Origin: a virus
DNA length: 38,834 nucleotides
Virus record (IMG/VR): IMGVR_UViG_3300045988_143259
Strand: one strand, 5' to 3'
Made by a program: the position numbers and the translations under genes
Notes under the pieces: generated by a model
What the model saw: the letters and a program-made list of their open reading frames with translations, nothing else
What the model was told of the DNA's origin: nothing
Databases searched by the model: none
Shown: positions 1 to 38,834 of the stretch, one piece after another
How the letters are laid out: each line of letters opens with the position of its first letter
How positions within the stretch are numbered: the stretch's first letter is position 1

Positions 1-99
1 CCAGAAATGGATCGTGAAACTATCAAACAAATATTTCGGGAGCTTCGCCAACCTAGAGGATGCCATCCAAAAACGTAGAGAGATAGAGACCAAAAAAAC
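1..99. repeat. Terminal direct overlap, copy 1 (identical to 38736..38834); circular-assembly signature
   Basis: Read directly: bases 1-99 (ccagaaatggatcgtgaaac...gagaccaaaaaaac) recur exactly at 38736-38834. An ORF runs through the junction in frame. Confidence 0.95.
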
Positions 100-421
100 G
101 ACAACTCGCTTTTGTGTGGTTTGCGGGAAACCTATCCCGCCGGACAGGCATAAAAACGCAACAACATGCTCCGAGGCATGCGTGAAAGAAAAAAGTCGGC
201 GTTACATGGCGGAGAAATATGAGGAGTACAAGAACGGACAAAGCCGAAGGCAAAACGGAAATCGCATGCATGCGTTGAGCGTATTCGTCCCGCAGAATAT
301 TTTAGGGGAGCTGAAAACAACAGCGAACAAGCGAAACATATCGCTCAGCGAGTATGTACGCGAACTACTCCAACAAGGTATTGAAAACGAAAAAAGGAGA
401 AAGAAAAATGAAAACATATGA
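1..421 (+). CDS. AP2 / zinc-ribbon / RHH DNA-binding protein, 3' part of the junction-spanning gene
   Basis: The ORF is open to the window edge (track 14..421). It contains CVVCG...CSEAC cysteine pairs. The C-terminal HALSVFVPQNILGELKTTANKRNISLSEYVRELLQQG fits a CopG/Arc-type beta-helix-helix, followed by a Lys/Arg tail. Confidence 0.8.
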   Translation, partial: QKWIVKLSNKYFGSFANLEDAIQKRREIETKKTTTRFCVVCGKPIPPDRHKNATTCSEACVKEKSRRYMAEKYEEYKNGQSRRQNGNRMHALSVFVPQNILGELKTTANKRNISLSEYVRELLQQGIENEKRRKKNENI

Positions 422-710
422 GATTTGGAAATGCACAAAAGAGTTCCCCTACAAAAAGAAGGAAGAGATTATAGAGGGGTGCACCATCCCGGACGAAGAG
501 CCGGAAATCATCTCCGTGCATGAATCACTCACCGAAGCGGAAGCAGCGCTTAAAAAGTACAGCACCACTGCAAGGACGTATTCTAGCGGTGCCGGTAAAT
601 ATATCGGTGTGACGGAATACTGTGTTGTGTCCTACGACCCGGACGAATTTGTTCAATCTGCGGATGTGCATGCAATCACAAAAATGGTTGAAGTGGATGA
701 AATAGCGTAA
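408..710 (+). CDS. hypothetical protein (100 aa), last gene of the plus-strand accessory cassette
   Basis: ATG 408 follows AAAGGAGA and overlaps the upstream stop by 14 nt. The gene is AT-richer than the phage backbone. I recognise no family. Confidence 0.7.
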   Translation: MKTYEIWKCTKEFPYKKKEEIIEGCTIPDEEPEIISVHESLTEAEAALKKYSTTARTYSSGAGKYIGVTEYCVVSYDPDEFVQSADVHAITKMVEVDEIA

Positions 711-769: not shown

Positions 770-964
770 TCACAGACTTTTCCGCCGAATCGACGCCAAA
801 TCATTATTCACGGTCCCCCGACTCACATCGAGTTCTGCGGCCACGTCCTCGATGGCCCAACCACGCCGGTAGTGCAACTCAAAAGCCGCCCGCTCCCGGT
901 CCGTGAGCCACGGGTTCCCGTGCATTTTCTCCAACTGGGCGGGGCTGTACCGATACCTGGGCAT
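770..964 (-). CDS. orphan sigma-70 region-4 / LuxR-type HTH protein (64 aa)
   Basis: LTDRERAAFELHYRRGWAIEDVAAELDVSRGTVNNDLASIRRK matches the sigma region 4.2 HTH pattern. Nothing corresponds to regions 2-3. The gene lies 12 nt downstream of the endolysin. Confidence 0.75.
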   Translation of the reverse strand: MPRYRYSPAQLEKMHGNPWLTDRERAAFELHYRRGWAIEDVAAELDVSRGTVNNDLASIRRKSL

Positions 965-976
965 GGTACCACCCCC

Positions 977-1771
977 TCAGTCCAGCACCCCCAGACGGCC
1001 CAGCACAACGGCCAGCTCATCCCGCTTGACAGGGCGCTCCGGCTCCTGCCCGTCCACAATGCCTTTCAGCGTGGCTTTTTCCCAATGGCCCTGCTTCCGG
1101 CTCCACTCAGGTTCCGCCACAGCGGCGGCGAACGTCATGGCCTTGGTATACAGTGCGTAGGCCTGCGCCCCCGTCATCTCTGCCAACAACTTGTTGATAT
1201 CCATATCATCATCCTCCTTCTCCGGCCGCTGAATGGTGACCGGTTTTTTCACCACGAAATAGTATTTCACCTGCTGTTTGAACAGCGAATAGTTCCCCTG
1301 CGTCCGCGCCGTCCGGGTGCTGGCAGGATCGTTGATGTAGATGGTATTCCCGGTGATTTTCCACACCAGGACGAAGTGCCCGGAAGACGTCCAAAGCCCA
1401 CGGCCCATGCAGGCGATCACAAGATCACCCTGGTCAACGGCAGCCTTGGCCTGGGCGTGGTACGGGCTGTTGGGCTTGCCGTAGATGCTGGCCCCGTTGA
1501 GCATCTTGCAGGTCAGGCCGAAGCGCTTGGCGGCGGGGGCGAAGTAGCCGTAATAGGTCCCCTGGTGCGGGGCCTTGTAGCCGTGGGCCAGCGCCCAGGC
1601 ACACTCACTCTTCGGCGTGACGGATTTGTCCGCCCAGGTGGCCAGCACCATCGCCATAGCGGTAGGGCCACAGCCGGATTTGCCGATAGTGGTGCTTTCT
1701 CCCTTGGCCGAGTAGCTGATATTCGACCAGCGCTGGTCAGTCTGGAGATAGGAGGTCGGTTGTTTATTCAT
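977..1771 (-). CDS. endolysin, Peptidase_C39-like (papain-fold) cell-wall hydrolase with a C-terminal SLH-like wall-binding segment
   Basis: GKSGCGPTAMAMVLA (catalytic Cys context) and SSGHFVLVW (His). The C-terminal RPVKRDELAVVLGRLGVL resembles an SLH repeat. Its position is at the end of the lysis cassette. Confidence 0.85.
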   Translation of the reverse strand: MNKQPTSYLQTDQRWSNISYSAKGESTTIGKSGCGPTAMAMVLATWADKSVTPKSECAWALAHGYKAPHQGTYYGYFAPAAKRFGLTCKMLNGASIYGKPNSPYHAQAKAAVDQGDLVIACMGRGLWTSSGHFVLVWKITGNTIYINDPASTRTARTQGNYSLFKQQVKYYFVVKKPVTIQRPEKEDDDMDINKLLAEMTGAQAYALYTKAMTFAAAVAEPEWSRKQGHWEKATLKGIVDGQEPERPVKRDELAVVLGRLGVLD

Positions 1772-2306
1772 GCAACACCATCCAATCCTCCGCCAGCATG
1801 TCGGACTGGGAAGCTAGCCAACCAACCTGTCGGCCTCTTGTACCGCAAAAGACCAGCGCATGACTGCCAATGTCACAATGAAAAGCCATTAGAGCCGGAT
1901 CGTCTTCGTGCTGATAGTAGATGTTTTTTCCCAACTCTACCCACTGACCCTTTCCATTCCATCCGGCTCGGGCGATGCGCTCACCCTTCTTGGCAGCCTC
2001 CAGGGCAAGCCCGAAGTTCATGCCGTCGGTGGGCCTATAGGCTCCCTTGAACACCTCCTTGGGGCTCCAGCTCTCGTAGCCGTCCTCATAGCGGACCTTG
2101 TAGCCCTCCTCCACCGCAGCCCCAACAGGTACTGCATCGTGGATGGAGCAGACCTTTCCATTCACGCGGTTTGCAGGTTCGGCCTCAACGATCTTAGTTC
2201 CGATATAGCGGTTCATGTTCATCTTCTCCTTTTCGTAGATGCTTTTCTCTCGCGAGATATTCGCCCAGCGAGGGTCCGTTTGCAGGTAGCTGGTTGGTTT
2301 ATCCAT
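1764..2306 (-). CDS. DUF2829 (Tad2-like) protein with the common N-terminal IGTK...SWSPKEVF domain. The first 28 codons are a duplicated endolysin 5' end, so the functional start is probably ATG 2222 or 2216.
   Basis: MNFGLALEAAKKGERIARAGWNGKGQWV...VGWLASQSDMLAEDWMVL matches the DUF2829 consensus closely. AAGGAG precedes the internal ATGs at 2222 and 2216. N-terminal MDKPTSYLQTDPRWANIS copies the endolysin MNKQPTSYLQTDQRWSNIS. Confidence 0.85.
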   Translation of the reverse strand: MDKPTSYLQTDPRWANISREKSIYEKEKMNMNRYIGTKIVEAEPANRVNGKVCSIHDAVPVGAAVEEGYKVRYEDGYESWSPKEVFKGAYRPTDGMNFGLALEAAKKGERIARAGWNGKGQWVELGKNIYYQHEDDPALMAFHCDIGSHALVFCGTRGRQVGWLASQSDMLAEDWMVLHE

Positions 2307-32127: not shown

Positions 32128-32146
32128 TATATCAGGAGGTGGGGTG

Positions 32147-32539
32147 ATGGAGTCCCTAGGTGAACGAATAAAGAAAGTGATGGAAGTGCGTGGAAAAAAT
32201 CAGACCGAATTTGCTGCAACGCTCGGCTTATCATCCGCGGCAATTTCGCAAATGATTTCCGGAAAATCCGGCGCATCAAACGGAACGTTGTTTCGTATTT
32301 CCGACGTTTTCAACATAAACTTGGAGTGGTTGAAAACAGGAGAAGGGAACATGGAGAAAGCGCTGCCGTTGAAACGCGAACTAACAGCACGTTTCTCTCA
32401 ACTAATCGGCACAGATATGCCGTATCGAGACGAAATAATCTGTTGTCTATCTGATCTCGGACCGGCTGAATGGAAAATTATTGGAGCGACAATAATCAAA
32501 ATGGCCGATAAGATCAAAGAAAGTGAAGCCGGAGAATAA
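32147..32539 (+). CDS. XRE/cI-type HTH repressor
   Basis: GERIKKVMEVRGKNQTEFAATLGLSSAAISQMISGKSGASNGTLFRISDVFNINLEWLKTGEG is an HTH_3 domain. It is followed by a roughly 60-aa C-terminal domain. Confidence 0.9.
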   Translation: MESLGERIKKVMEVRGKNQTEFAATLGLSSAAISQMISGKSGASNGTLFRISDVFNINLEWLKTGEGNMEKALPLKRELTARFSQLIGTDMPYRDEIICCLSDLGPAEWKIIGATIIKMADKIKESEAGE

Positions 32540-32588: not shown

Positions 32589-33215
32589 ATGAGAAAAGAA
32601 GGACAGGGCGGGCCGAAAAAGCCCGTGTACAAGAGGGTTTGGTTTTGGGTGCTAGTCGTGGTCGTTGTGTTTTTCGTTGCGGTCATGGCAACGCCACTGC
32701 CGGAGGATAGCGGAACAGAGCAGGAGGAACAGAGTGCCGCCGTCGAACAGCAGAAAGAAGAAACCACTGAACCGGCAGAGGAAGAGGCTCCCGCTGTGGA
32801 TGCCCCGGACGTTGCAAAGGACCTGGACAGTAAATATTGCACTTACGTCCGCATGAGCAACAACTGTCTCAAGGGCGTACTAGATGAGGATAATGACCCT
32901 GCGACAACGTACACAAAGTGTACCAAGTCCAAAGACTTTTTTATGCAGGCGCAGGAGAAAATCAGCGCAGCCCGTACCGATGCCATCAAGGACGTGGCTG
33001 ACTGCGCAGAGGCTATTGTACAGTGCATGTACTCCGCTTGCGGAAATATCCAGAAATACCTGGATGACGGGAAAACCAGAGATTTGAGTGCCGCTCAGAC
33101 GGACATTCAGGACATGAACACCCTGAAAACGGAGTTCGAGATGCGGCGGCAGGCATACCTGGAAAAATGCGGAATCGGCGATCAGTACGAACCGCTGAAT
33201 TACGATTACGAGTGA
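32589..33215 (+). CDS. signal-anchored envelope protein with an acidic linker and a Cys-containing helical ectodomain
   Basis: The ATG follows AGGAGGATAAC. TM segment VWFWVLVVVVVFFVAVMA, then an E/Q/A/P-rich linker and a 130-aa domain with 6 Cys. Confidence 0.75.
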   Translation: MRKEGQGGPKKPVYKRVWFWVLVVVVVFFVAVMATPLPEDSGTEQEEQSAAVEQQKEETTEPAEEEAPAVDAPDVAKDLDSKYCTYVRMSNNCLKGVLDEDNDPATTYTKCTKSKDFFMQAQEKISAARTDAIKDVADCAEAIVQCMYSACGNIQKYLDDGKTRDLSAAQTDIQDMNTLKTEFEMRRQAYLEKCGIGDQYEPLNYDYE

Positions 33216-33226
33216 GGGTAGTGGAC

Positions 33227-33964
33227 ATGAAAGAGAGAACAAGGGGATTTGTCGCCGGCTTTCTGTTGTGTGCCCTGCTAATCGGGCTAGGGATTCCAGT
33301 TGGAGCTGCAACGTACAAAAAAGCCGTCGAGATTTACTACCGGGATGTGAAAATCACGCTGGATGGCCAGAAGGTTACACCCAAAGACGCACAAGGTCGA
33401 GCTGTGGAGCCGTTTATCATGGATGGGACGACCTATCTTCCCGTTCGCGGAATCGCTTCTGCATTGGGGATGGGCGTTGACTGGGATAACAGCACCAGCA
33501 CCGTAAAGCTCCACAGCAACGGGAATAGCGGTGTCTTGGATGATGTTTATGCTCTACTGGATTTCACTGGTCACAGCGTTTGGTCGCAGACAGAAACCGT
33601 TGAAATCATCCACGGAGACACACCAACAGAAACGTGGAAGGACTGTATGTATTTCCTGGGTGACGGTAGGTTCTACTGCTATCAGTATTCACTGGATTCC
33701 ACAAGTGATTATGGAATCGAAGGCGAGTACAATGTTGTAGACGGCTGTCTGAATATCGTGTATCAGATAGATTATAACCAGAACGAAAACACCCGCGATA
33801 TTTACAAAATCAGAACAGAGGGAAATGCCATAGTTTTGGAGTACGTATCCGGTGCCGGACTGTTTACCGGAAAGTATACGCAGGACGAAGAATGGACACA
33901 GTACGACATTGGGAAAAAGGTAGATGAGGCATTCCACAAGTATGATGATGCCCCCTATAAGTAA
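33227..33964 (+). CDS. secreted protein with a copper-amine-oxidase N-terminal (stalk-like) domain
   Basis: Signal peptide FVAGFLLCALLIGLGIPVGAA. VKITLDGQKV...PFIMDGTTYLPVRGIASALGMGVDWDNSTSTVKL fits the Cu_amine_oxidN1 pattern. Confidence 0.8.
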   Translation: MKERTRGFVAGFLLCALLIGLGIPVGAATYKKAVEIYYRDVKITLDGQKVTPKDAQGRAVEPFIMDGTTYLPVRGIASALGMGVDWDNSTSTVKLHSNGNSGVLDDVYALLDFTGHSVWSQTETVEIIHGDTPTETWKDCMYFLGDGRFYCYQYSLDSTSDYGIEGEYNVVDGCLNIVYQIDYNQNENTRDIYKIRTEGNAIVLEYVSGAGLFTGKYTQDEEWTQYDIGKKVDEAFHKYDDAPYK

Positions 33965-34294: not shown

Positions 34295-34376
34295 ATTCTA
34301 GCCCTTTCTCATGGAAACCATATTCTTCCAAAGATGCAGAACAACAACAAAAAACGTCGAAAGAAGGGGAAAATTG

Positions 34377-35630
34377 ATGAAGAAAGACACAAAGTACAAA
34401 TACGTCCGAAAAACAATGACTTGGGAAGGGCGGAGATATGAGGTTACAGGGAAAACGGAAGCGGAGGCAATGGAGAAGCTGGGGGCGCTGAAAGAGACGC
34501 TGCGGCGGGGTGAGGGGACCATCGGGCCGGACGTGACGGTTGACCGGTGGTTCCGGGAGTGGTTTGATTTGTACAAGGTTCCGGCGGGGCTGACCAAGAA
34601 ATCGTTGGGGATGTACGGGGAGAAATACAGGGGTTATATTGGCCCCGCCATCGGGCGGATGAGACTGCGAGAAGTGCGAGAGGCGCATTTACAGCGCATC
34701 CTCAACAGTCAGGCCGGGCGCTCCTACTCCCACGTCTCGAAGCTACGGCTGGTGATGACGGAGATGTTTTCCAGAGCTGCAAGCACCCGGCTTATCCCAT
34801 TTGACCCATCGACCAAACTGGAGCTGCCAGAAAACAAAAAAGGCACCCATCGTTCGCTCACGCCCGAAGAGCGAGAGCTTTTTCTCTCAGTCGCGCAGAC
34901 TCATCGGGCCGGGCTGTTTATCCTAACGATCCTGTATGCAGGTCTGCGCCCCGGCGAAGCCGCCGCGCTGAACTGGGAAGACATTGATTTTGATCGGAGA
35001 GAAATCATCGTGCATAAAGCTGTGGAGAGCGGCAACGAAAACATCAAGGACACCAAGACGCCGGCAGGGCGGCGAGAGATCCCCATGAACGCCGTTCTGA
35101 CCCAGCGGATGTTAGAGGCCAGAGGGAAACCAAAGGAGCCGGTGTTCCGGGTGCGGACCGGGAAGCGCGTCGACCACCAGGCAATCCGCCGCATGTGGAC
35201 ATCGTTTATGCGGGAGGTAGATATCCGCATGGGGGCAAAAACATACCGCAACAAAATCATCGAAAGCGCCCTGCCGCCCGGCCTGACCGCCTACTGCCTG
35301 CGCCACACCTTCTGCACGGACCTCCAACGTTCCGAAACCCCCATCAACGTGGCCAAAGAGCTGATGGGCCACCAGGATGTAAGCACAACAGCCAACATCT
35401 ACACCCACAAAGATCAGGATGTTTTGCGAAAATTTATTGATAAAACCGAAAACTACAACATCACCGAGACAAAATCTGTGTGTTATGCTGATGCTTTAGC
35501 CCTGGCAATAGGCCAGGGAGTGGCAGATTTCGGCCTACCAAAGCCAAAAATCACAGTTCACACCACATCCTACACCACCCCCGCCGAACCGGTCCCCGTG
35601 GAAAACCCCGTGGAAAAAGTTTTCGGGTAA
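34377..35630 (+). CDS. int: tyrosine integrase
   Basis: N-terminal KYKYVRKTMTWEGRRYEVTGKTEAEAMEKL arm-binding type. Catalytic residues in LRPGEAAAL (R), CLRHTF (HxxR) and GHQDVSTTANIYTH (H..Y). An unusually long tail of about 75 aa follows the Tyr. Confidence 0.9.
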   Translation: MKKDTKYKYVRKTMTWEGRRYEVTGKTEAEAMEKLGALKETLRRGEGTIGPDVTVDRWFREWFDLYKVPAGLTKKSLGMYGEKYRGYIGPAIGRMRLREVREAHLQRILNSQAGRSYSHVSKLRLVMTEMFSRAASTRLIPFDPSTKLELPENKKGTHRSLTPEERELFLSVAQTHRAGLFILTILYAGLRPGEAAALNWEDIDFDRREIIVHKAVESGNENIKDTKTPAGRREIPMNAVLTQRMLEARGKPKEPVFRVRTGKRVDHQAIRRMWTSFMREVDIRMGAKTYRNKIIESALPPGLTAYCLRHTFCTDLQRSETPINVAKELMGHQDVSTTANIYTHKDQDVLRKFIDKTENYNITETKSVCYADALALAIGQGVADFGLPKPKITVHTTSYTTPAEPVPVENPVEKVFG

Positions 35631-35879: not shown

Positions 35880-36185
35880 TCACATCCCCTCGATCTTCCC
35901 CCGCACCTTCGCCACCCACGGCTCCGTCCGCTCCTCGGTCAGCTCACAAATCGCCGAAATCCCGGCCTTGTTGTCCTCCTCGGTGGCGTCCCGGCAAATC
36001 TTTCTCATCATGTCCATGAGCATGTCCCGATGTCCCAGCTCCTGGCTGGCCATGGTCGCATAGCTCCGAGCCATGTTAGGATCGTACTCTCTCAGTTTTT
36101 TGGCGATTTTGCCATAGTGCTGCGCCCCCATGATTTCATCGTCAATGTCGGCGGCGATGGATTTGATCTGCTCCAGTTTCGTCAT
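35880..36185 (-). CDS. island gene E: 101-aa helical protein with a ferritin-like E..H motif
   Basis: ATG 36185 follows GAGGTG. The product is MTKLEQIKSIAADIDDEIMGAQHYGKIAKK...MASQELGHRDMLMDMM. Confidence 0.7.
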   Translation of the reverse strand: MTKLEQIKSIAADIDDEIMGAQHYGKIAKKLREYDPNMARSYATMASQELGHRDMLMDMMRKICRDATEEDNKAGISAICELTEERTEPWVAKVRGKIEGM

Positions 36186-36195
36186 GGCAATCACC

Positions 36196-36594
36196 TCAGA
36201 TCTTGTCCACGGTGACGGCGATATTGGAAACGGTAGCGGCGGCAGACAGCACCACAGTATAAGTGGCTCCGGCGCAGTTGCCAAACTGACGCACCATCGC
36301 GGTGAGCGGCAGCGTCACAGCCTCACCCACAGCGGCGGCGGTGACGGTAGCGGTAGCACCAGGCACGGCCACACCGTCCCGCATCAGCGTGGCGGTGATA
36401 GCCCCGGCGGCGGCAGGCAGGGCAGTCAGTACGATGTCAAAATCGTAATAGCCCGCGCCGTTGATGATGATGCCGTTGCCGTTGAGGTTGATATTACAGC
36501 CGAACCGGCGGTTGATGCTCCCCAGCGGGATCGAGCCGCCCGCCGTAGCGGTGGCCCCGGTGTTTACGGTATAGATACCAGAGTTACAGCTCAT
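36196..36594 (-). CDS. island gene D: 132-aa Ala/Thr/Gly-rich all-beta protein, C1q/TNF-like (BclA C-terminal-domain-like)
   Basis: ATG 36594 follows GAGAGAGGAGC. The pattern GGSIPLGSI...INGAGYYDFDIVL...LMRDGVAVPGATATV...LPLTAMV resembles the BclA_C jelly-roll. There are no collagen repeats. Confidence 0.6.
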   Translation of the reverse strand: MSCNSGIYTVNTGATATAGGSIPLGSINRRFGCNINLNGNGIIINGAGYYDFDIVLTALPAAAGAITATLMRDGVAVPGATATVTAAAVGEAVTLPLTAMVRQFGNCAGATYTVVLSAAATVSNIAVTVDKI

Positions 36595-36612
36595 AATTTT
36601 TGCTCCTCTCTC

Positions 36613-36645
36613 AAAAAACAGAGGCGGGGACATTCGCCCCCGCCC
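36613..36645 (-). terminator. internal intrinsic terminator between island genes C and D
   Basis: Minus strand: ggcgggg-cgaatgt-ccccgcc, followed by TCTGTTTTTT. Confidence 0.75.
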
Positions 36646-36664
36646 ACCCGGTCAACGTGACCAA

Positions 36665-37258
36665 TCAGATGTTGCCGTTGCTACACCCGCCGAAAAACGG
36701 GTTGCAGTTGGTTGCATACGCAGTGCTGGTAGGATACCGCACCACGCCGCACATGGCCTGAGCAAGCTCAAGCTGCTGGATGCGAGCAGCCATAGCCGCC
36801 TCACGGTCCGCGCACATTTTGTCCAGCACCTTCTGGATGCCAGCGGTGATGTTTGCGTTGGTAGCCGCGTTGTAGTTGGCCATGTCAAACCGCACACTGT
36901 CGATATTGCGCTGGGTGGTGCAGCAGCACTCAGCGATCTGCGCCATCAGGTCCCGGAAATTGCCCTGGGTGGAATAGCCCAGGTCGCAGATGCCCTTAGT
37001 CAGGTTGATGTTTACGCCATCCAACTGGTCACTCAGACGACCAACTGCGCCCTTCATTTCGACAAACGAGTTGGCGCTGCACAAGTCCGCCTCGGTGACG
37101 GGGTTGCCGTTGCTCCGGCCACCGAACCCGAAACCGCCGCCGAACATAAAAATGATGGCGAACAGAATGATCAGGATGAAGCCGTTGCCCCAGCCTTTTC
37201 CGTCGCCACCGCCGCCCAGAACAGCGGCGATGTCGGACAAGCTAAAATTGCTATCCAT
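36665..37258 (-). CDS. island gene C: bitopic membrane protein with a Gly-zipper TM and a 9-Cys Asn/Gly-rich C-terminal domain
   Basis: ATG 37258 follows AAGGAG. N-terminal GGGGDGKGWGNGFILIILFAIIFMFGGGFGFGG, then ...GICDLGY...IAECCCTTQRNID...NCNPFFGGCSNGNI. Confidence 0.75.
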   Translation of the reverse strand: MDSNFSLSDIAAVLGGGGDGKGWGNGFILIILFAIIFMFGGGFGFGGRSNGNPVTEADLCSANSFVEMKGAVGRLSDQLDGVNINLTKGICDLGYSTQGNFRDLMAQIAECCCTTQRNIDSVRFDMANYNAATNANITAGIQKVLDKMCADREAAMAARIQQLELAQAMCGVVRYPTSTAYATNCNPFFGGCSNGNI

Positions 37259-37317
37259 GTTATTTTTCTCCTTTTCGGGAATTTTATCAGCGGTTGGCCA
37301 CCCCGCAGATAATCATG

Positions 37318-37545
37318 TTAAAAAAGCCCCTTGAATTGGTTCAGGTCGATGCCGTGCTCCGCGGCCACCTGCTCCGGGGTTTTGCCTTTGCAGCTCTGCA
37401 CAAACTGGGCAAACTGCGGATTTCTCTGCATCAACAGAGGAATCAGTTTCTCAGGATCCTTGCCTTTCAATGTGGAAATCAGTTGCGCGATCATGGCAAC
37501 CGGATTTGCTCCACCGGCAGCCTTCTGAAATAATGGGTTACTCAT
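37318..37545 (-). CDS. island gene B: 75-aa helical protein
   Basis: ATG 37545 lies 7 nt after GGAGGG, in an ATGAGTAA overlap with gene A. The product is MSNPLFQKAAGGANPVAMIAQL...LMQRNPQFAQFVQSCKGKTPEQV. Confidence 0.7.
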   Translation of the reverse strand: MSNPLFQKAAGGANPVAMIAQLISTLKGKDPEKLIPLLMQRNPQFAQFVQSCKGKTPEQVAAEHGIDLNQFKGLF

Positions 37546-37930
37546 CCGCAAACCCTCCGATCTGTTCGTTTAATTTATTCAAAAATTCGGAAAACTCCGC
37601 CTTGGTCACAAACTCTGGTTCCGCCGCTTTCTGTGTAGCCTCCGGGTCGTATTTTTCAAAACGGTAATAGTTAGTCGTGGTGATGCCAGTGGTGTCCGCC
37701 TCTTTCACAGCAAACACCGGTTCTCCCTGCGCCATGATCCAGGCCTTCACACCCGGTTGTACGCTCACGTTAGCGATGTCAGCTACTCCGGGTACCAGAA
37801 CCCACCCAGGCCCATTCTGACGCTCCTGGGCGCTTCCTGCACCCTGTGGCGGCGTCTGACGTTGCCACCATGGGCTTTGCATCGACATTTGCCCCCATCC
37901 AGTCATCACGGGATAGCCTAACTCAAACAT
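37538..37930 (-). CDS. island gene A: 130-aa protein with a Q/P/W-rich N-terminus and a small beta-rich core
   Basis: ATG 37930 lies 8 nt after GGAGG. The core is GWVLVPGVADIANVSVQPGVKAWIMAQGEPVFAVKEADTTG. Confidence 0.7.
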   Translation of the reverse strand: MFELGYPVMTGWGQMSMQSPWWQRQTPPQGAGSAQERQNGPGWVLVPGVADIANVSVQPGVKAWIMAQGEPVFAVKEADTTGITTTNYYRFEKYDPEATQKAAEPEFVTKAEFSEFLNKLNEQIGGFADE

Positions 37931-37955
37931 CCTGCATCCCTCCGTTTCTGTTAAA

Positions 37956-37964
37956 ATCGTACCA
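37956..37964 (-). promoter_or_regulatory. extended -10 promoter element for island operon A-E
   Basis: Minus strand TGgTACGAT. The same TGgTA architecture occurs at 31116-31124 and 38079-38087. Confidence 0.45.
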
Positions 37965-37984
37965 AATTTTTACAGCCCACTTGT

Positions 37985-38028
37985 CCAAACCATGCCCAAT
38001 TCCTGCTCAATTTATGCTCAATTTATGC
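37985..38028. repeat. four phased 11-bp tandem repeats upstream of the A-E promoter
   Basis: ccaaaccatgc / ccaattcctgc / tcaatttatgc / tcaatttatgc. The last two are identical. Confidence 0.8.
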
Positions 38029-38036
38029 CCAACAAA

Positions 38037-38064
38037 AAGCCCGCCCCCAAAATGGGACGGGTTT
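38037..38064 (-). terminator. intrinsic terminator oriented leftward in the island spacer
   Basis: Stem cccgcccc/gggacggg with one mismatch, followed on the minus strand by CTTTTTGTT. Confidence 0.5.
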
Positions 38065-38093
38065 CGACACTGGGAATGTGGTATTTTATAGCT

Positions 38094-38164
38094 ACCTTAT
38101 TCTCCCCCAGAGAAAAGGCAGCCCCCACCGGCACGTTGCAGAAAACCGGCGGGGGCTTTTGTTT
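38094..38164 (+). ncRNA. candidate small RNA (extended -10 at 38079-38087 to terminator at 38121-38164)
   Basis: TGgTATTTT promoter element. An 11-bp stem gcccccaccgg/ccggcgggggc (one mismatch) is followed by TTTTGTTT. The 5' part carries ccttattctccccc (anti-Shine-Dalgarno-like). Confidence 0.3.
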
Positions 38165-38171
38165 CGTCATA

Positions 38172-38239
38172 TTGTACGGAAATTATACGGATATTTAGGT
38201 AATATGCCTATTGCGTTGTACGGAAAAAAGTCGTATAAT
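38172..38239 (+). promoter_or_regulatory. promoter and direct-repeat operators of the plus-strand regulator cassette
   Basis: TTGCGT (38211-16), 17 nt, TATAAT (38234-39). The direct repeat ttgtacggaaa occurs at 38172-38182 and 38216-38226, 44 nt apart. Confidence 0.55.
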
Positions 38240-38289
38240 AAGGACAGTTAAGAGAGAAACCCACAGAATAAAAAACGGAGGCAAACAAA

Positions 38290-38484
38290 ATGACTAAGAC
38301 CTACTTTTTCCCTGATGACTACACCGAATTTGACATTTTCGGTCAGGAGATGCCCGTTTGTATCGACCGCGCAGAGTGTGAGCGGCTGGCTAGAGAATAT
38401 GAAATGACCGTGGCAGAATTCATGGACCACATGCATGAGGCCAGCGAGAGTGAGATTGCAGAGTACGGAGTGTATGCAGAGTAA
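38290..38484 (+). CDS. small very acidic protein (64 aa)
   Basis: The ATG follows ACGGAGG. About 17 of 64 residues are Asp/Glu. The product is MTKTYFFPDDYTEFDIFGQEMPVCIDRAECERLAREYEMTVAEFMDHMHEASESEIAEYGVYAE. Confidence 0.7.
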   Translation: MTKTYFFPDDYTEFDIFGQEMPVCIDRAECERLAREYEMTVAEFMDHMHEASESEIAEYGVYAE

Positions 38485-38505
38485 GCATGGATGGAGGTTT
38501 GAGAA

Positions 38506-38652
38506 ATGGATGATGCAAGAATCGAGATTCGCATGAGTACGGAGATGAAATCCCAGTTGCAAGCGCTGGCTAAGTCTGGAAGCATGACGGTGGGCGGCTA
38601 TATCAAGTCGCTCATCCAGCGTGAGATCGAGAAGAGCAAGGGGACGGCATAA
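38506..38652 (+). CDS. ribbon-helix-helix (CopG/Arc-like) protein, 48 aa, unannotated in the ORF track
   Basis: ATG 38506 lies 8 nt after GGAGG. MDDARIEIRMSTEMKSQLQALAKSGSMTVGGYIKSLIQREIEKSKGTA fits the beta-strand, helix, G-turn, helix pattern. Confidence 0.7.
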   Translation: MDDARIEIRMSTEMKSQLQALAKSGSMTVGGYIKSLIQREIEKSKGTA

Positions 38653-38682
38653 CGCCGCCCCATCACTTCATTAGGAGGAACC

Positions 38683-38834
38683 ATGGAGGAAACCAAAAAA
38701 TCCGGTGTAAAGGGCGTCTCCTGGAACAAGAAAACCCAGAAATGGATCGTGAAACTATCAAACAAATATTTCGGGAGCTTCGCCAACCTAGAGGATGCCA
38801 TCCAAAAACGTAGAGAGATAGAGACCAAAAAAAC
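38683..38834 (+). CDS. AP2-domain / zinc-ribbon / ribbon-helix-helix DNA-binding protein, 5' part (continues at 1..421 across the circular junction; about 187 aa in total)
   Basis: ATG 38683 lies 4 nt after AGGAGG (38673-38678). The N-terminus MEETKKSGVKGVSWNKKTQKWIVKLSNKYFGSFANLEDAIQKR fits the AP2/ERF-type strand-strand-strand-helix pattern. Position 38749 equals position 14 and is in frame. Confidence 0.8.
   Translation, partial: MEETKKSGVKGVSWNKKTQKWIVKLSNKYFGSFANLEDAIQKRREIETKK
38736..38834. repeat. Terminal direct overlap, copy 2
   Basis: Exact 99-nt match to 1-99. Confidence 0.95.

Follow-up and report, generated by a model that had tools for sequence, protein, structure and literature searches.

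A four-gene phage cassette as the minimal form of a modular, probably self-regulated accessory island, most likely of anti-defence type

In the 38,834-nt stretch of viral DNA analyzed here (hereafter, the window), four plus-strand genes, g1 to g4, run across the junction of the sequence ends and make up a single operon, which we interpret as a modular and probably self-regulated accessory island in its most reduced form. An anti-defence (acr-type) island is the most likely assignment, one that we hold with moderate confidence because of the acr-type genes found in its relatives and one domain fusion; no gene of the window belongs to a known anti-defence family. An earlier note on this DNA had offered an anti-restriction unit as a secondary idea; taken as an anti-defence unit, this is the best-supported reading. 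The phage, a gut siphophage whose host appears Bacillota-like, is temperate and encodes a CI-like repressor (32144-32539) and an integrase. Judging from sequence comparison with related loci (L numbers below), the slot of the cassette is a variable accessory island, with the lysis genes of the temperate siphophage on one side and its integrase-proximal end on the other. The genes and the hairpins that accompany them are listed below.

38290-38484, plus strand: g1, 64 amino acids, pI 4.15, 17 D/E versus 4 K/R
38506-38652, plus strand: g2 (RHH48), a 48-amino-acid ribbon-helix-helix (RHH) protein
38640-38661, plus strand: hairpin spanning the g2 stop codon, MFE -21.1 kcal/mol, z -3.79
38683-38834, plus strand: 5' part of g3, codons 1-50 and two bases of codon 51, with an AP2-like domain at residues ~7-50
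1-421, plus strand: remainder of g3, in which nt 1-99 duplicate 38736-38834 and nt 100-421 are the unique part
408-710, plus strand: g4, 100 amino acids, acidic, pI 4.6
739-769, no strand assigned: hairpin shared by the convergent cassette (plus) and late/lysis operon (minus)

Each of the four reading frames is preceded by a GGAGG-type ribosome-binding site (RBS) and is under purifying selection (dN/dS 0.01-0.21 versus homologues in related loci); by these two measures g1-g4 are genuine genes, and the four-gene plus-strand cassette described earlier is borne out. So is its AT-richness relative to the backbone (46.2% GC over 1334 nt versus 55.9% for the genome). The lysogeny region at 32-34 kb has a GC content as low as that of the cassette. 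The length of about 187 amino acids previously given for gene 3 was wrong: the window closes with 99 nt (38736-38834) that are an identical copy of nt 1-99, and this duplicate had been counted twice, so that g3 has 157 amino acids. The terminator reported at 741-767 does exist as a hairpin (739-769, 14 bp, GC-rich), and it also closes the island in L001 and L005, but its better T-tract lies on the minus strand; it mainly terminates the late/lysis operon and would at most work in both directions. No tRNA or Rfam family was detected anywhere in the window, the cassette DNA had no similarity match among 50,697 deposited phage genomes, and no relatives were detected in 185,579 species-representative genomes scanned with the g3 family and with a conserved 139-aa neighbor.

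Upstream of g1 lies a compact promoter region with the following elements.

38120-38165, plus strand: GC-rich hairpin AGCCCCCACCGG / CCGGCGGGGGCT with a TTTTGTTT tail (inverted repeat I4)
38172-38193, plus strand: predicted operator box O1 (5' of the -35), TTGTACGGAAATTATACGGATA, with two TACGGA half-sites in direct orientation at a spacing of 11 nt
38211-38216, plus strand: -35 hexamer TTGCGT, 3/6 matches to TTGACA
38216-38237, plus strand: predicted operator box O2, TTGTACGGAAAAAAGTCGTATA, imperfect inverted repeat TACGG-N7-TCGTA
38234-38239, plus strand: -10 hexamer TATAAT, 17 nt from the -35
38243-38256, plus strand: leader GACAGTTAAGAGAG, unique in the window

One such module of ~100 bp (terminator tail, O1, -35, O2 over the -10, leader) stands ahead of g1-g2-g3-g4, and 24 copies were found in 16 related loci, all on the strand of the island. 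Relatives reuse the module one to three times per island before different cargo genes; L004, L011, L012, L049 and L117 carry two or three, with up to three, ahead of unrelated first genes, in L011 and L012. The 16 TACGG-type copies share a mean mutual identity of 92%, at a divergence where synonymous sites of the neighboring genes are near saturation (dS up to ~2). Conservation extends to the scaffold TGCCTATTGC around the -35 (24/24 copies), the leader (at most one mismatch in 24/24, with both operator types), TATAAT (16/16 TACGG-type modules), and the tail TTTTGTTTCGTCAT, which is kept ahead of most copies. The hairpin at 38120-38165, with 12-nt arms that are 92% complementary, reads as an insulating terminator, and it stands upstream of the module in every locus. 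As a query against viral contigs, the 14-nt leader was unspecific, with ~100 chance matches; a composite pattern of 29 specified bases returned three true loci.

The earlier note had called this promoter near-consensus. Its hexamers and 17-nt spacer are present, but with a -35 matching at three of six positions the term does not hold, and a promoter scan tool did not call TTGCGT-17-TATAAT. We accept the promoter because it is conserved in 24 module copies, and we infer that transcription starts at about 38246. A minus-strand promoter-like site that the scan did call (38210-38182) is attributed to chance, since its -10 is not conserved in relatives and its transcript would hit the hairpin at once. 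The 5' leader has no significant RNA structure (z-score -0.36), leaving an Aca2-like RNA-binding mode without support. The two direct repeats 44 nt apart that had been noticed in this region were recovered: the 38.8-kb window has two exact copies of TTGTACGGAAA and no more, one at 38172 and one at 38216, and a third copy with two mismatches lies at 38183. These repeats are very probably RHH operator sites. O2 fills the -35/-10 spacer and overlaps the -10; many relatives have CCGTA in place of TCGTA, and the perfect palindrome of a sister lineage occupies the same position.

Across the related loci there are three operator types, each paired with one regulator. TACGG-type operators and RHH48 co-occur perfectly in 10 loci, one of which, L049, lacks g3. 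The palindrome TGTACACCCAATGGGTGTACA in both operator boxes accompanies RHH47, a protein 50% identical to g2, in L006, L008, L009 and L117, the last of which also has no g3; in RHH47-encoding loci, O1 is swapped as a unit for the palindrome TGTACACCC..GGGTGTACA. The third type, ACACCAAATTGGTGT on a TTGACA-17-TATAAT promoter, is confined to four loci, those with a gene for the HTH protein F5. Between L012 and L117, the cargo genes share 90-100% nucleotide identity, versus 48-78% for both operator modules and the small RHH gene. The predicted DNA-facing strand residues are R5/E7/R9 in g2 and R5/S7/R9 in RHH47, so that the two strands differ at the central position (R-E-R versus R-S-R). The RHH of g3, for its part, comes in four subtypes or is absent within the TACGG group. 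Because the operator type tracks g2 and not the RHH of g3, g2 is likely an autorepressor, proposed to bind O1 and O2. All compared loci come from one phage lineage, and the covariation could in part reflect linkage, regulator and operators lying within ~1.5 kb of each other. O1 is a direct and not an inverted repeat, and the -35 is weak; both observations count against the g2-operator reading.

With its N-terminal strand, two helices and profile matches, g2 is assigned to the RHH (MetJ/Arc) superfamily from its sequence. It matches phrog_13890 (1.7e-5) and the Arc-like repressor family phrog_582 (4e-4), and its Pfam matches (RHH_5, NikA-like, DUF6290) all fall below the curated cutoffs; the sister proteins RHH46 and RHH47 score higher on the same families, and RHH46 reaches the NikA-like cutoff (27.4 versus 27). 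In fold and size g2 resembles Arc and Mnt of the P22 immI region, CopG and the omega repressors, and it would likewise use a beta-ribbon to contact repeated half-sites at a promoter that they overlap. Heptad repeats are bound by omega in direct as well as inverted orientation, a tolerance that binding to O1 and O2 would demand. The operator sequences and the context are different, however, with no antirepressor, plasmid copy-control or partition genes nearby. In relatives (L049, L011, L012), the hairpin at the g2 stop serves as terminator of the RHH48 operon, ahead of the module that follows; in the window, at 38640-38661, it is joined directly to the RBS of g3 and may be an attenuator or a recombination scar.

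The g3 protein (pI 9.9) combines an AP2-like domain, a treble-clef zinc ribbon (C56, C59, C74, C78; helix 76-97), a disordered linker (98-108) and a C-terminal RHH (108-155). Its Pfam scores for AP2 (20.0 bits), DUF2116 (21.6) and CopG/RHH (22.1) are all below the curated cutoffs; the AP2 match, against a cutoff of 33.3, covers only the first 19 model positions. Because of these sub-cutoff scores, the domain calls for g3 and g2 hold only in combination with AlphaFold2 (AF2) models, fold matches, PHROG and family-level matches. Among 14 g3 family members, AP2 matches occur in seven, all sub-cutoff, DUF2116 in all 14 (best 4.9e-12), and RHH families in most. The AF2 model (pLDDT 83) contains a beta-beta-beta-alpha unit (strands 12-15, 20-25 and 28-33, helix 36-50; pLDDT ~87-91), the zinc ribbon and the RHH helices. 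Foldseek returned Arc, CopG, CdbA and AmrZ for the RHH (probability 0.97-0.99) and AP2-fold matches at 0.69-0.95, namely WRINKLED1 (0.69) and a T. gondii mitoribosomal large-subunit chain (0.95), which we take to have an AP2 fold although the Foldseek output does not label it so. Searches by tblastn hit AP2 parts of homing endonucleases and one annotated AP2/ERF protein; among 50,697 phage records, including those of Listeria and C. difficile phages, g3 had no tblastn match at E <= 1e-3. The AP2 (PF00847) assignment thus holds at the level of fold and family comparison, not at the Pfam threshold, and the domain composition proposed for gene 3 is confirmed at that level. We found no description of AP2 + zinc ribbon + RHH, in line with the remark that an AP2-RHH architecture was undescribed; the combination is a rare one. 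We also considered a homing-endonuclease remnant, as g3 matches phrog_99 (HNH-endonuclease C-terminal region, 1.2e-10), and rejected it: the DNA-binding tail alone matches, and there is no HNH domain. Across lineages, the AP2 module is nearly invariant, and the RHH and the number of zinc ribbons vary.

Since g3 does not track the operator type, its target is probably not O1 or O2, although its RHH could take some part in binding the operators or assemble with g2 into mixed oligomers. An alternative that we consider rather improbable makes g3 the master regulator (Aca) of the island, binding the scaffold around the -35 or the leader, with g2 fine-tuning. It would fit the near-invariance of both the AP2 module and the module scaffold, the resemblance, in our own comparison, of TGCCTATTGC to the 11-mer TGCCCAATTCC of the array described below, and the first proposal that AP2 proteins in acr loci are Aca-like (10.1101/2023.05.22.541795). 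L049 and L117 nevertheless use the same scaffold without g3, RNA polymerase contacts and RBS context can account for the scaffold, and for those AP2 proteins of acr loci that have been studied by experiment, the site of action is the host cas genes instead of the acr promoters (10.64898/2026.02.23.707548).

AP2 proteins are frequent in acr loci, and one AcrIC5 homologue adjoins an AP2 protein (10.1101/2023.05.22.541795). CasPRs (Sanderson et al., bioRxiv 2026) are zinc-domain (CapR) plus AP2 anti-CRISPRs of Bacillota phages that silence cas genes, and any extra HTH domain in them is considered autoregulatory (10.64898/2026.02.23.707548). Like them, g3 has the AP2 domain, which is required for CasPR activity, one or more zinc-binding modules in variable number, an optional extra DNA-binding domain (HTH in CasPRIB2, RHH in g3), and a place in an accessory slot after the lysin, with Acr homologues in relatives. 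Unlike in CasPRs, the AP2 domain comes first, the C-terminal RHH implies obligate dimers, and the zinc module is a CxxC...CxxxC treble clef (DUF2116-like) in place of the CapR pattern CxCxC...CxC. That pattern occurs twice in gp27 of phiCDHM13, in a part that does not align to the g3 family; hhalign of the family with gp27 (10.1101/2023.05.22.541795) covers the AP2 region only (41 columns, E 4e-4, probability 35%). On this analysis, g3 is most likely a dimeric, CasPR-like factor with a target outside O1 and O2.

The main proposal of the earlier note was that the cassette could serve the divergent A-E operon (minus strand, 35880-37930) as its dedicated set of regulators. One further feature bears on it.

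37993-38036, no strand assigned: four tandem 11-nt repeats TGCYCAATTYM, next to CTTGTCCAAAC, which is conserved, and upstream of 37930, where the divergent operon starts

That g2 and/or g3 are dedicated transcription factors of A-E, acting on 37931-38289, would agree with the divergent gene arrangement in every locus and with an array placed just upstream of a weak, extended -10-type promoter region, as suits an activator site; the AP2 domain of g3 and the array are, moreover, both kept across lineages. The array lies outside the cassette promoter. The TACGG repeats, however, are the cassette's own promoter elements, in a module that is reused inside islands, with terminator-like hairpins between that promoter and the A-E side. 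In L118, g1-g3 are 100% identical and adjoin a different divergent operon, with only two proteins remotely (27-28%) similar to B and C of the window, close to the finding that the note itself had named as refuting; because of this identical cassette beside a different operon in another phage, the dedicated role is unsupported. Three to six copies of the 11-nt repeat stand before both divergent operon types in every locus covering the region; L049, which has no AP2 protein, and L117 retain the array and the divergent operon without g3. We therefore regard the cassette as private regulator of A-E as improbable. The array is a putative target of g3 or of another factor, and g3 may have a role at this conserved site upstream of A-E.

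The anti-defence reading itself draws on the cargo of the related islands. In the same slot, relatives carry an AcrVA2 homologue and AcrIC5-domain proteins. The latter score 39.6 and 33.9 bits on PF22147 (cutoff 27), with the 39.6-bit match lying in residues 3-39 of a g1-like fusion. The AcrIC5 match spans only 37 of the 53 model positions. In these 126-aa fusion proteins (L001-L003), the C-terminal half is a g1-like domain, and in L008 an AcrIC5-domain gene is the first gene of an RHH47-type operon. A 339-aa protein of a relative has a precomputed PF26125 (AcrVA2-like) match and reaches the solved AcrVA2 structure 7ci1 at E 1.1e-6. AcrVA2 homologues are widespread, and few have been assayed. 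The relatives also have a terminal HTH gene, as in canonical acr-aca operons, and the position of the island corresponds to that of the AcrIIA1-3 locus of Listeria A118 and of the phiCDHM13 locus of C. difficile. For ten island families, PHROGs gave 'unknown function' only, plus HTH matches for F5.

Both g1 and g4 are candidate effectors, g1 as an anti-defence candidate in view of the shared domain. Only 8 clusters among 5.8 billion proteins contain g1, whose dN/dS is 0.01-0.15. The g4 start overlaps the g3 stop by 14 nt (translational coupling), and g4 (dN/dS 0.13-0.18) occurs only directly 3' of the 153-157-aa form of g3. Its AF2 model is of moderate confidence only (pLDDT 68), with spurious immunoglobulin and arrestin matches (rmsd >8 Å) as the sole Foldseek result against the PDB, and with only uncharacterized gut siphovirus proteins as matches in BFVD. 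A PDB profile search with g4 and a PDB sequence search with g1 found nothing. None of g1-g4 matched known anti-CRISPR families (AcrIC5 PF22147, AcrVA2), and PADLOC had no match for g1-g4 and six island families, so that identity with a defence system is rejected.

These searches also bear on a type II toxin-antitoxin or abortive infection module, in which an RHH antitoxin (g2 or g3) would be set against a small toxin (g1 or g4). Weak RelB, CopG_antitoxin, VapB and CcdA matches of g2 and g3 could be read this way, as could the constant pairing of g3 and g4 with their 14-nt overlap and the proposed autoregulation of the promoter. The antitoxin matches are, however, all sub-cutoff and generic to the fold; g2 is a bare RHH of 48 residues, without a toxin-binding extension and with a variable downstream neighbor, and the acidic g1 and g4 have no toxin family or fold in Pfam, NCBIfam, PADLOC, PDB sequences or Foldseek. 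The toxin-antitoxin idea, also raised earlier, is thus not supported, and we judge it highly improbable.

A secondary immunity region like immI of P22, with two RHH repressors (as Arc and Mnt) controlling an antirepressor, g1 or g4, in the lysis-lysogeny decision, would account for two RHH-containing proteins in one small operon, both with Arc-like PHROG matches, for an operator that overlaps the promoter, and for a temperate phage with a CI-like repressor and an integrase. It is distinctly improbable: neither g1 nor g4 matches Ant, KilAC or another antirepressor family, the island lies in a post-lysis moron slot far from the immunity region (32.1 kb), and its genes vary more between loci than a core decision circuit would allow, the cargo in relatives including AcrIC5-domain proteins and AcrVA2 homologues and no immunity genes. 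The island could also carry other kinds of moron genes.

Under the preferred anti-defence reading, the promoter would fire upon entry of the phage DNA, and g1 and g4, the candidate effectors, would be made together with g2. Dimers of g2 would then bind the TACGG half-sites of O1 and O2, whose spacing of 11, 33 and 44 nt would place them on one helix face, and the bound protein would occlude the -35 and -10, turning the operon off in an Aca14-like manner. As a second, separate DNA-binding factor, g3 would act as a CasPR-like dimer elsewhere, on host defence genes or the 11-nt array, with its RHH as a dimerization or auxiliary module. A bolder extension, possible although we consider it unlikely, is that g3 founds a silencer class parallel to CasPRs, in which an obligate RHH dimer with AP2 and one to three treble-clef zinc ribbons binds host DNA (e.g. 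coding regions of defence genes) and switches off transcription of immunity, g2 autoregulates through exchangeable operator cassettes, and g1 and g4 are new direct inhibitors of pre-existing defence complexes.

The closest parallel for g2 is Aca14 (Feussner et al., Nucleic Acids Res 2026), an RHH Aca that binds an inverted repeat over the -10 and controls neighboring operons (PMC13551039). Both are small RHH proteins, and g2 would likewise be encoded within an anti-defence-type operon; the motif, for g2 a predicted one, overlaps their own -10 (here O2, TACGG-N7-YCGTA, over TATAAT) and is repeated before neighboring operons, which corresponds to the one to three modules per island in our loci. 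The likeness is one of description. As to differences, Aca14 is described with a long helical extension and g2 is minimal, Aca14 comes from Pasteurellaceae and the host here appears Bacillota-like, there are two operator boxes 44 nt apart with O1 a direct repeat, and the operon of the window contains no known acr gene. With canonical acr-aca operons (HTH Aca1-13) and prophage anti-defence islands, the cassette shares promoter-operator autoregulation (proposed here), cargo proteins that are small and acidic, extreme turnover of this cargo alongside regulators that are conserved, and a place adjoining the lysis module, as in Listeria A118; relatives show the textbook form, in which a consensus promoter bearing palindromes is combined with AcrIC5-domain and AcrVA2-like genes and the terminal HTH. 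In contrast to those operons, the regulator is an RHH protein whose gene comes second instead of last, a single operon encodes two DNA-binding proteins, and the window has no experimentally validated Acr.

If this reading is right, g2 and its relatives would add a second family, independent of the first, to the RHH-type Aca regulators, and this one would belong to a gut phage lineage that is Bacillota-like. The loci would also constitute a natural specificity swap, with scaffold and cargo constant and operator boxes and RHH exchanged together; because they swap together on a constant scaffold, the protein-DNA recognition code would be directly testable. AP2 + zinc ribbon + RHH would extend the theme of acr-locus AP2 proteins as DNA-targeting effectors or regulators, and would be relevant to a question posed in the Aca14 paper, namely whether anti-defence control involves zinc-finger-type domains (PMC13551039). 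The island families F2, F4, F6 and F9-F13, as well as g1 and g4, are all uncharacterized, and the ~100-bp module, RHH48/RHH47 and g3 would serve as a portable marker with which uncultured gut phages could be searched for new anti-defence genes through guilt by association.

The phage is a temperate siphophage whose unit length is 38,735 bp, and its contig is circular or terminally redundant, nt 38736-38834 being an exact copy of nt 1-99. Simple joining of both contig ends thus over-counts an open reading frame across the junction: g3, the third gene of the plus-strand cassette, had been put at about 187 aa because this 99-nt duplicate was counted twice, and its true length is 157 aa. The four reading frames located by the earlier note are all present in the sequence:

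38290-38484, plus strand: g1, 64 aa, pI 4.15
38506-38652, plus strand: g2 (the ribbon-helix-helix protein RHH48), 48 aa
38683-38834 joined to 100-421, plus strand: g3, 157 aa, pI 9.9
408-710, plus strand: g4, 100 aa, pI 4.6, with a 14-nt overlap with the end of g3

Each is preceded by a GGAGG-type RBS and, compared with homologues in related loci, is under purifying selection (dN/dS 0.01-0.21), which marks them as real genes and not chance reading frames. The cassette is indeed AT-richer than the backbone (46.2% GC versus 55.9% for the genome), and GC is similarly low in the lysogeny/moron region at 32-34 kb. Two lysogeny genes of the phage are:

32144-32539: CI-like repressor
34311-35630: integrase

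After the integrase, the minus strand carries the genes for replication, packaging, head, tail and lysis. TerL shares no more than 33% identity with any deposited phage, and its top matches are among Bacillota phages. The lysogeny-side accessory genes at 32589-33964 (GC 47-49%, low as in the cassette) encode a superinfection-exclusion-like protein (phrog_4980, 7e-8) and a Cu_amine_oxidN1-domain protein (3.4e-19). In the lysis module, a 180-aa protein (1764-2306, minus strand) with a Tad2-like / DUF2829 domain (PF11195 E 1.5e-20; phrog_872 4.9e-43) might be a Thoeris anti-defence homologue; it lies outside the island described below. A 64-aa protein consisting of sigma-70 region 4 alone (770-964, minus strand; PF08281, 2e-8), perhaps a late regulator or anti-sigma-like factor, is encoded directly 3' of the endolysin in all related loci, convergent with the island. 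Two relatives carry a 349-aa reverse transcriptase (RVT_1) in the tail-fibre region (L008 9341-10390, L009 7200-8249), adjoining CBM_5_12 and DUF6273 proteins; this may be a diversity-generating retroelement.

The cassette occupies an island slot, bounded by the divergent minus-strand operon on one side and the sigma-r4/endolysin genes on the other, which holds 2-10 plus-strand genes from at least 17 families. Its promoter lies among two direct repeats, as proposed: TTGTACGGAAA has exactly two perfect copies in the window, at 38172 and 38216, and a third with 2 mismatches at 38183.

38211-38239, plus strand: promoter TTGCGT-17-TATAAT

The description of this promoter as near-consensus overstated its strength, as the -35 element matches the consensus at only 3/6 positions, and a generic promoter scan of the window did not call it. 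A minus-strand promoter called instead was rejected, since the relatives do not conserve the site. Promoter function is assigned by comparison, because the surrounding module of ~100 bp is kept across relatives. In the window and 15 related loci, recovered via g3 homologues and a composite DNA pattern, we found 24 copies, arranged as a terminator tail TTTTGTTTCGTCAT, putative operator box O1, TTTAGGTAATATGCCTATTGC including the -35 element, box O2 over the -10 element, a leader GACAGTTAAGAGAG(G) and an RBS. Mean pairwise identity among the 16 modules of the TACGG type is 92%; synonymous sites of the adjoining genes are near saturation (dS up to ~2). Islands contain 1-3 modules, every copy in the orientation of the island, and the first genes behind them are unrelated (g1-like, families F2, F4, F9 and F11, and a 136-aa gene in L049). 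In O1 the repeat is direct, and O2 is an imperfect inverted repeat, TACGG-N7-TCGTA, over TATAAT (CCGTA in many relatives). Spacings of 11, 33 and 44 nt between the TACGG cores (38176, 38187 and 38220) place all three on the same helix face.

A stable hairpin spans the g2 stop codon (38640-38661, -21.1 kcal/mol, z -3.8). In L011, L012, L004 and L049 this hairpin, with a T-rich tail, terminates the RHH48 operon just 5' of the next module. In the window and L118 it abuts the g3 RBS and the g1/g2 order is inverted relative to L012, which points to a recombination junction.

Which protein reads the operators can be approached through their variation. RHH48 at least 94% identical to g2 is encoded in 10/10 loci with TACGG boxes. 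In a sister lineage (L006, L008, L009, L117) the scaffold is the same and both boxes are the palindrome TGTACACCC(A/T)(A/T)TGGGTGTACA, the second overlapping the -10 element (TACAAT); these loci encode RHH47, 50% identical to g2, with predicted DNA-facing strand residues R-S-R versus R-E-R in g2. A third promoter type, with a consensus TTGACA-17-TATAAT and two ACACCAAATTGGTGT palindromes, is confined to the four loci encoding F5, an HTH protein of 109-110 aa that is likely a classical anti-CRISPR-associated regulator (Aca). It lies at L001 6790-6860 and L005 6830-6900 and also occurs in L002 and L003, driving AcrIC5-domain/AcrVA2-like genes in L001-L003 and a 61-aa gene in L005. Each of the three operator types is thus invariably paired with one regulator, the signature of autoregulated operons, on which g2 is assigned as the probable operator-binding autorepressor; the chief reservation is that regulator and operators are linked over ~1.5 kb, in loci of a single phage lineage. 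The RHH domain of g3, by comparison, falls into four subtypes inside the TACGG group, and g3 is absent from L049 (TACGG type) and L117 (palindrome type).

The cleanest evidence comes from L012 and L117, whose cargo genes F2, Zn203 and F6 share 90-100% nucleotide identity, whereas identity falls to 65-78% in the first module and to 48-75% in the small RHH gene and second module. Operators and small RHH have been swapped jointly on a background that is otherwise shared. On paper, g2 and the putative operators fit the pattern of Aca14, to which we liken them by layout and not by sequence: this RHH Aca binds an inverted repeat over the -10 element and represses its own and a neighbouring anti-defence operon (PMC13551039). 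A third small RHH protein, RHH46 (46 aa, strand residues R-Q-R), replaces g4 as the gene overlapping the g3 end in the lineage with a long g3 form (235-237 aa):

L006 6711-6851: RHH46
L007 1109-1249: RHH46
L008 6705-6845: RHH46
L009 4237-4377: RHH46

The earlier suggestion of an anti-restriction unit fares best among the functional readings when widened to anti-defence. In relatives' islands, some proteins exceed the gathering cutoff of Pfam AcrIC5 at their N-terminus (39.6 and 33.9 bits versus 27), and a 339-aa protein has a precomputed AcrVA2-like Pfam match and also matches solved AcrVA2 (7ci1, E 1.1e-6, ~240 residues). A terminal HTH gene gives these islands the arrangement of canonical acr-aca operons. 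L001-L003 encode fusions of the AcrIC5-like domain with a C-terminal g1-homologous domain (37-39% identity, E 1e-15 to 1e-16); g1 and AcrIC5, described as a highly acidic protein (10.1101/2025.06.06.658234), are both strongly acidic. The island position matches the Listeria phage A118 AcrIIA1-3 locus, between lysin and integrase, and the C. difficile phiCDHM13 locus, 3' of the endolysin. No window protein has a direct match to an anti-defence family: known Acr families did not match g1-g4, nor did defence-system models match g1-g4 and six other island families. By association and one domain fusion, the island with its cassette is probably an anti-defence locus. The cassette had also been read as an antitoxin/toxin-like unit, and an immI-like reading was considered, but each lacks its defining partner.

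It had further been proposed that the cassette could be the dedicated regulator set of the divergent operon.

35880-37930, minus strand: divergent A-E operon, proteins matching PHROG unknowns
37993-38036: the 11-nt sequence TGCYCAATTYM four times in tandem, next to conserved CTTGTCCAAAC and 60-105 nt upstream of the start codon of the divergent operon

The related locus L118 argues against this proposal: its g1-g3 are 100% identical to those of the window, but they adjoin an alternative operon (151/78/278/74/136/241 aa) in which just two proteins are remotely similar (27-28%) to B and C of the window. By this comparison, the A-E operon is no specific partner of the cassette. Relatives carry either type; the 241-aa protein of the alternative is DUF7841, and the A-E products include a Gly/Cys-rich membrane protein (197 aa) and one of 145 aa that matches BclA_C (C1q-like) below the cutoff. 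Between the 11-nt array and the cassette promoter sit two GC-rich hairpins with T-tracts (38038-38061 and 38120-38157), terminator-like on both strands, with no gene between them; in L010, ~80 nt between them are deleted, apparently via recombination between GCCCGCCCCCA and GCAGCCCCCA repeats.

For g3, the earlier call of AP2, zinc ribbon and RHH domains holds, as predicted fold, structural matches and family-level matches agree. In the AF2 model (pLDDT 83), residues 12-50 form a beta-beta-beta-alpha unit, the zinc ribbon carries a long helix, residues 98-108 are a disordered linker, and the RHH contributes two helices. The Foldseek matches of the C-terminus are CdbA, Arc, CopG and AmrZ (probability 0.97-0.99); those of the N-terminus are WRINKLED1 and a T. 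gondii mitoribosomal large-subunit chain (0.69-0.95). Single-sequence Pfam matches are all below cutoff; across the family, DUF2116 is found in 14/14 members, RHH families in most and AP2 in 7/14. The N-terminal module is almost invariant, followed by 1-3 CxxC...CxxxC zinc ribbons and a variable C-terminal RHH. The family is rare, with 13 clusters in a set of 5.8 billion proteins. When 1.84 billion representatives were searched with a profile, roughly six more clusters matched across all three domains (among them P0027, P0028, P0030, P0050 and P0071), alongside variants without AP2 (P0031, P0038) or without RHH (P0033). A literature search for this architecture found no description.

The AP2 domain stays conserved from one operator lineage to another, and the module can do without g3; the target of g3 is therefore most likely elsewhere. 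It may be host DNA or the conserved 11-nt array at 37993-38036, and the g3 RHH would supply dimerisation. The array, of 3-6 copies (4 in L011 and 6 in its near-identical relative L012), lies upstream of both divergent operon types, as would suit regulation of the divergent promoter by g3 via the spacer; it persists, however, in L049, which has no AP2 protein, and we consider such regulation unsupported and unlikely. The array may serve a regulator, the integrase (as arm sites) or another purpose.

Action on host DNA would resemble that of CasPRs, CapR (zinc) and AP2 proteins abundant in Bacillota phage acr loci, which are anti-CRISPRs that bind cas coding sequences and block transcription, and whose extra HTH domains are dispensable and thought autoregulatory (10.64898/2026.02.23.707548). 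Genes with an AP2 domain occur frequently in acr loci; in Cryptobacterium curtum an AP2 protein adjoins an AcrIC5 homologue, and gp27 of phiCDHM13 has been proposed as an Aca (10.1101/2023.05.22.541795). The gp27 sequence has two CxCxC...CxC modules and a C-terminal AP2, and its alignment with the g3 family is confined to the AP2 region (hhalign E 4e-4, probability 35%), so g3 does not qualify on CapR and was ruled out as a CasPR family member. In design, g3 and the CasPRs are built alike: the number of zinc modules varies, an AP2 is present, and a further DNA-binding domain is optional.

The locus thus combines a putative RHH-type Aca-like autorepressor with exchangeable operator cassettes, as judged from covariation in one phage lineage, and an undescribed AP2, zinc ribbon and RHH protein that would occupy a CasPR-like niche.
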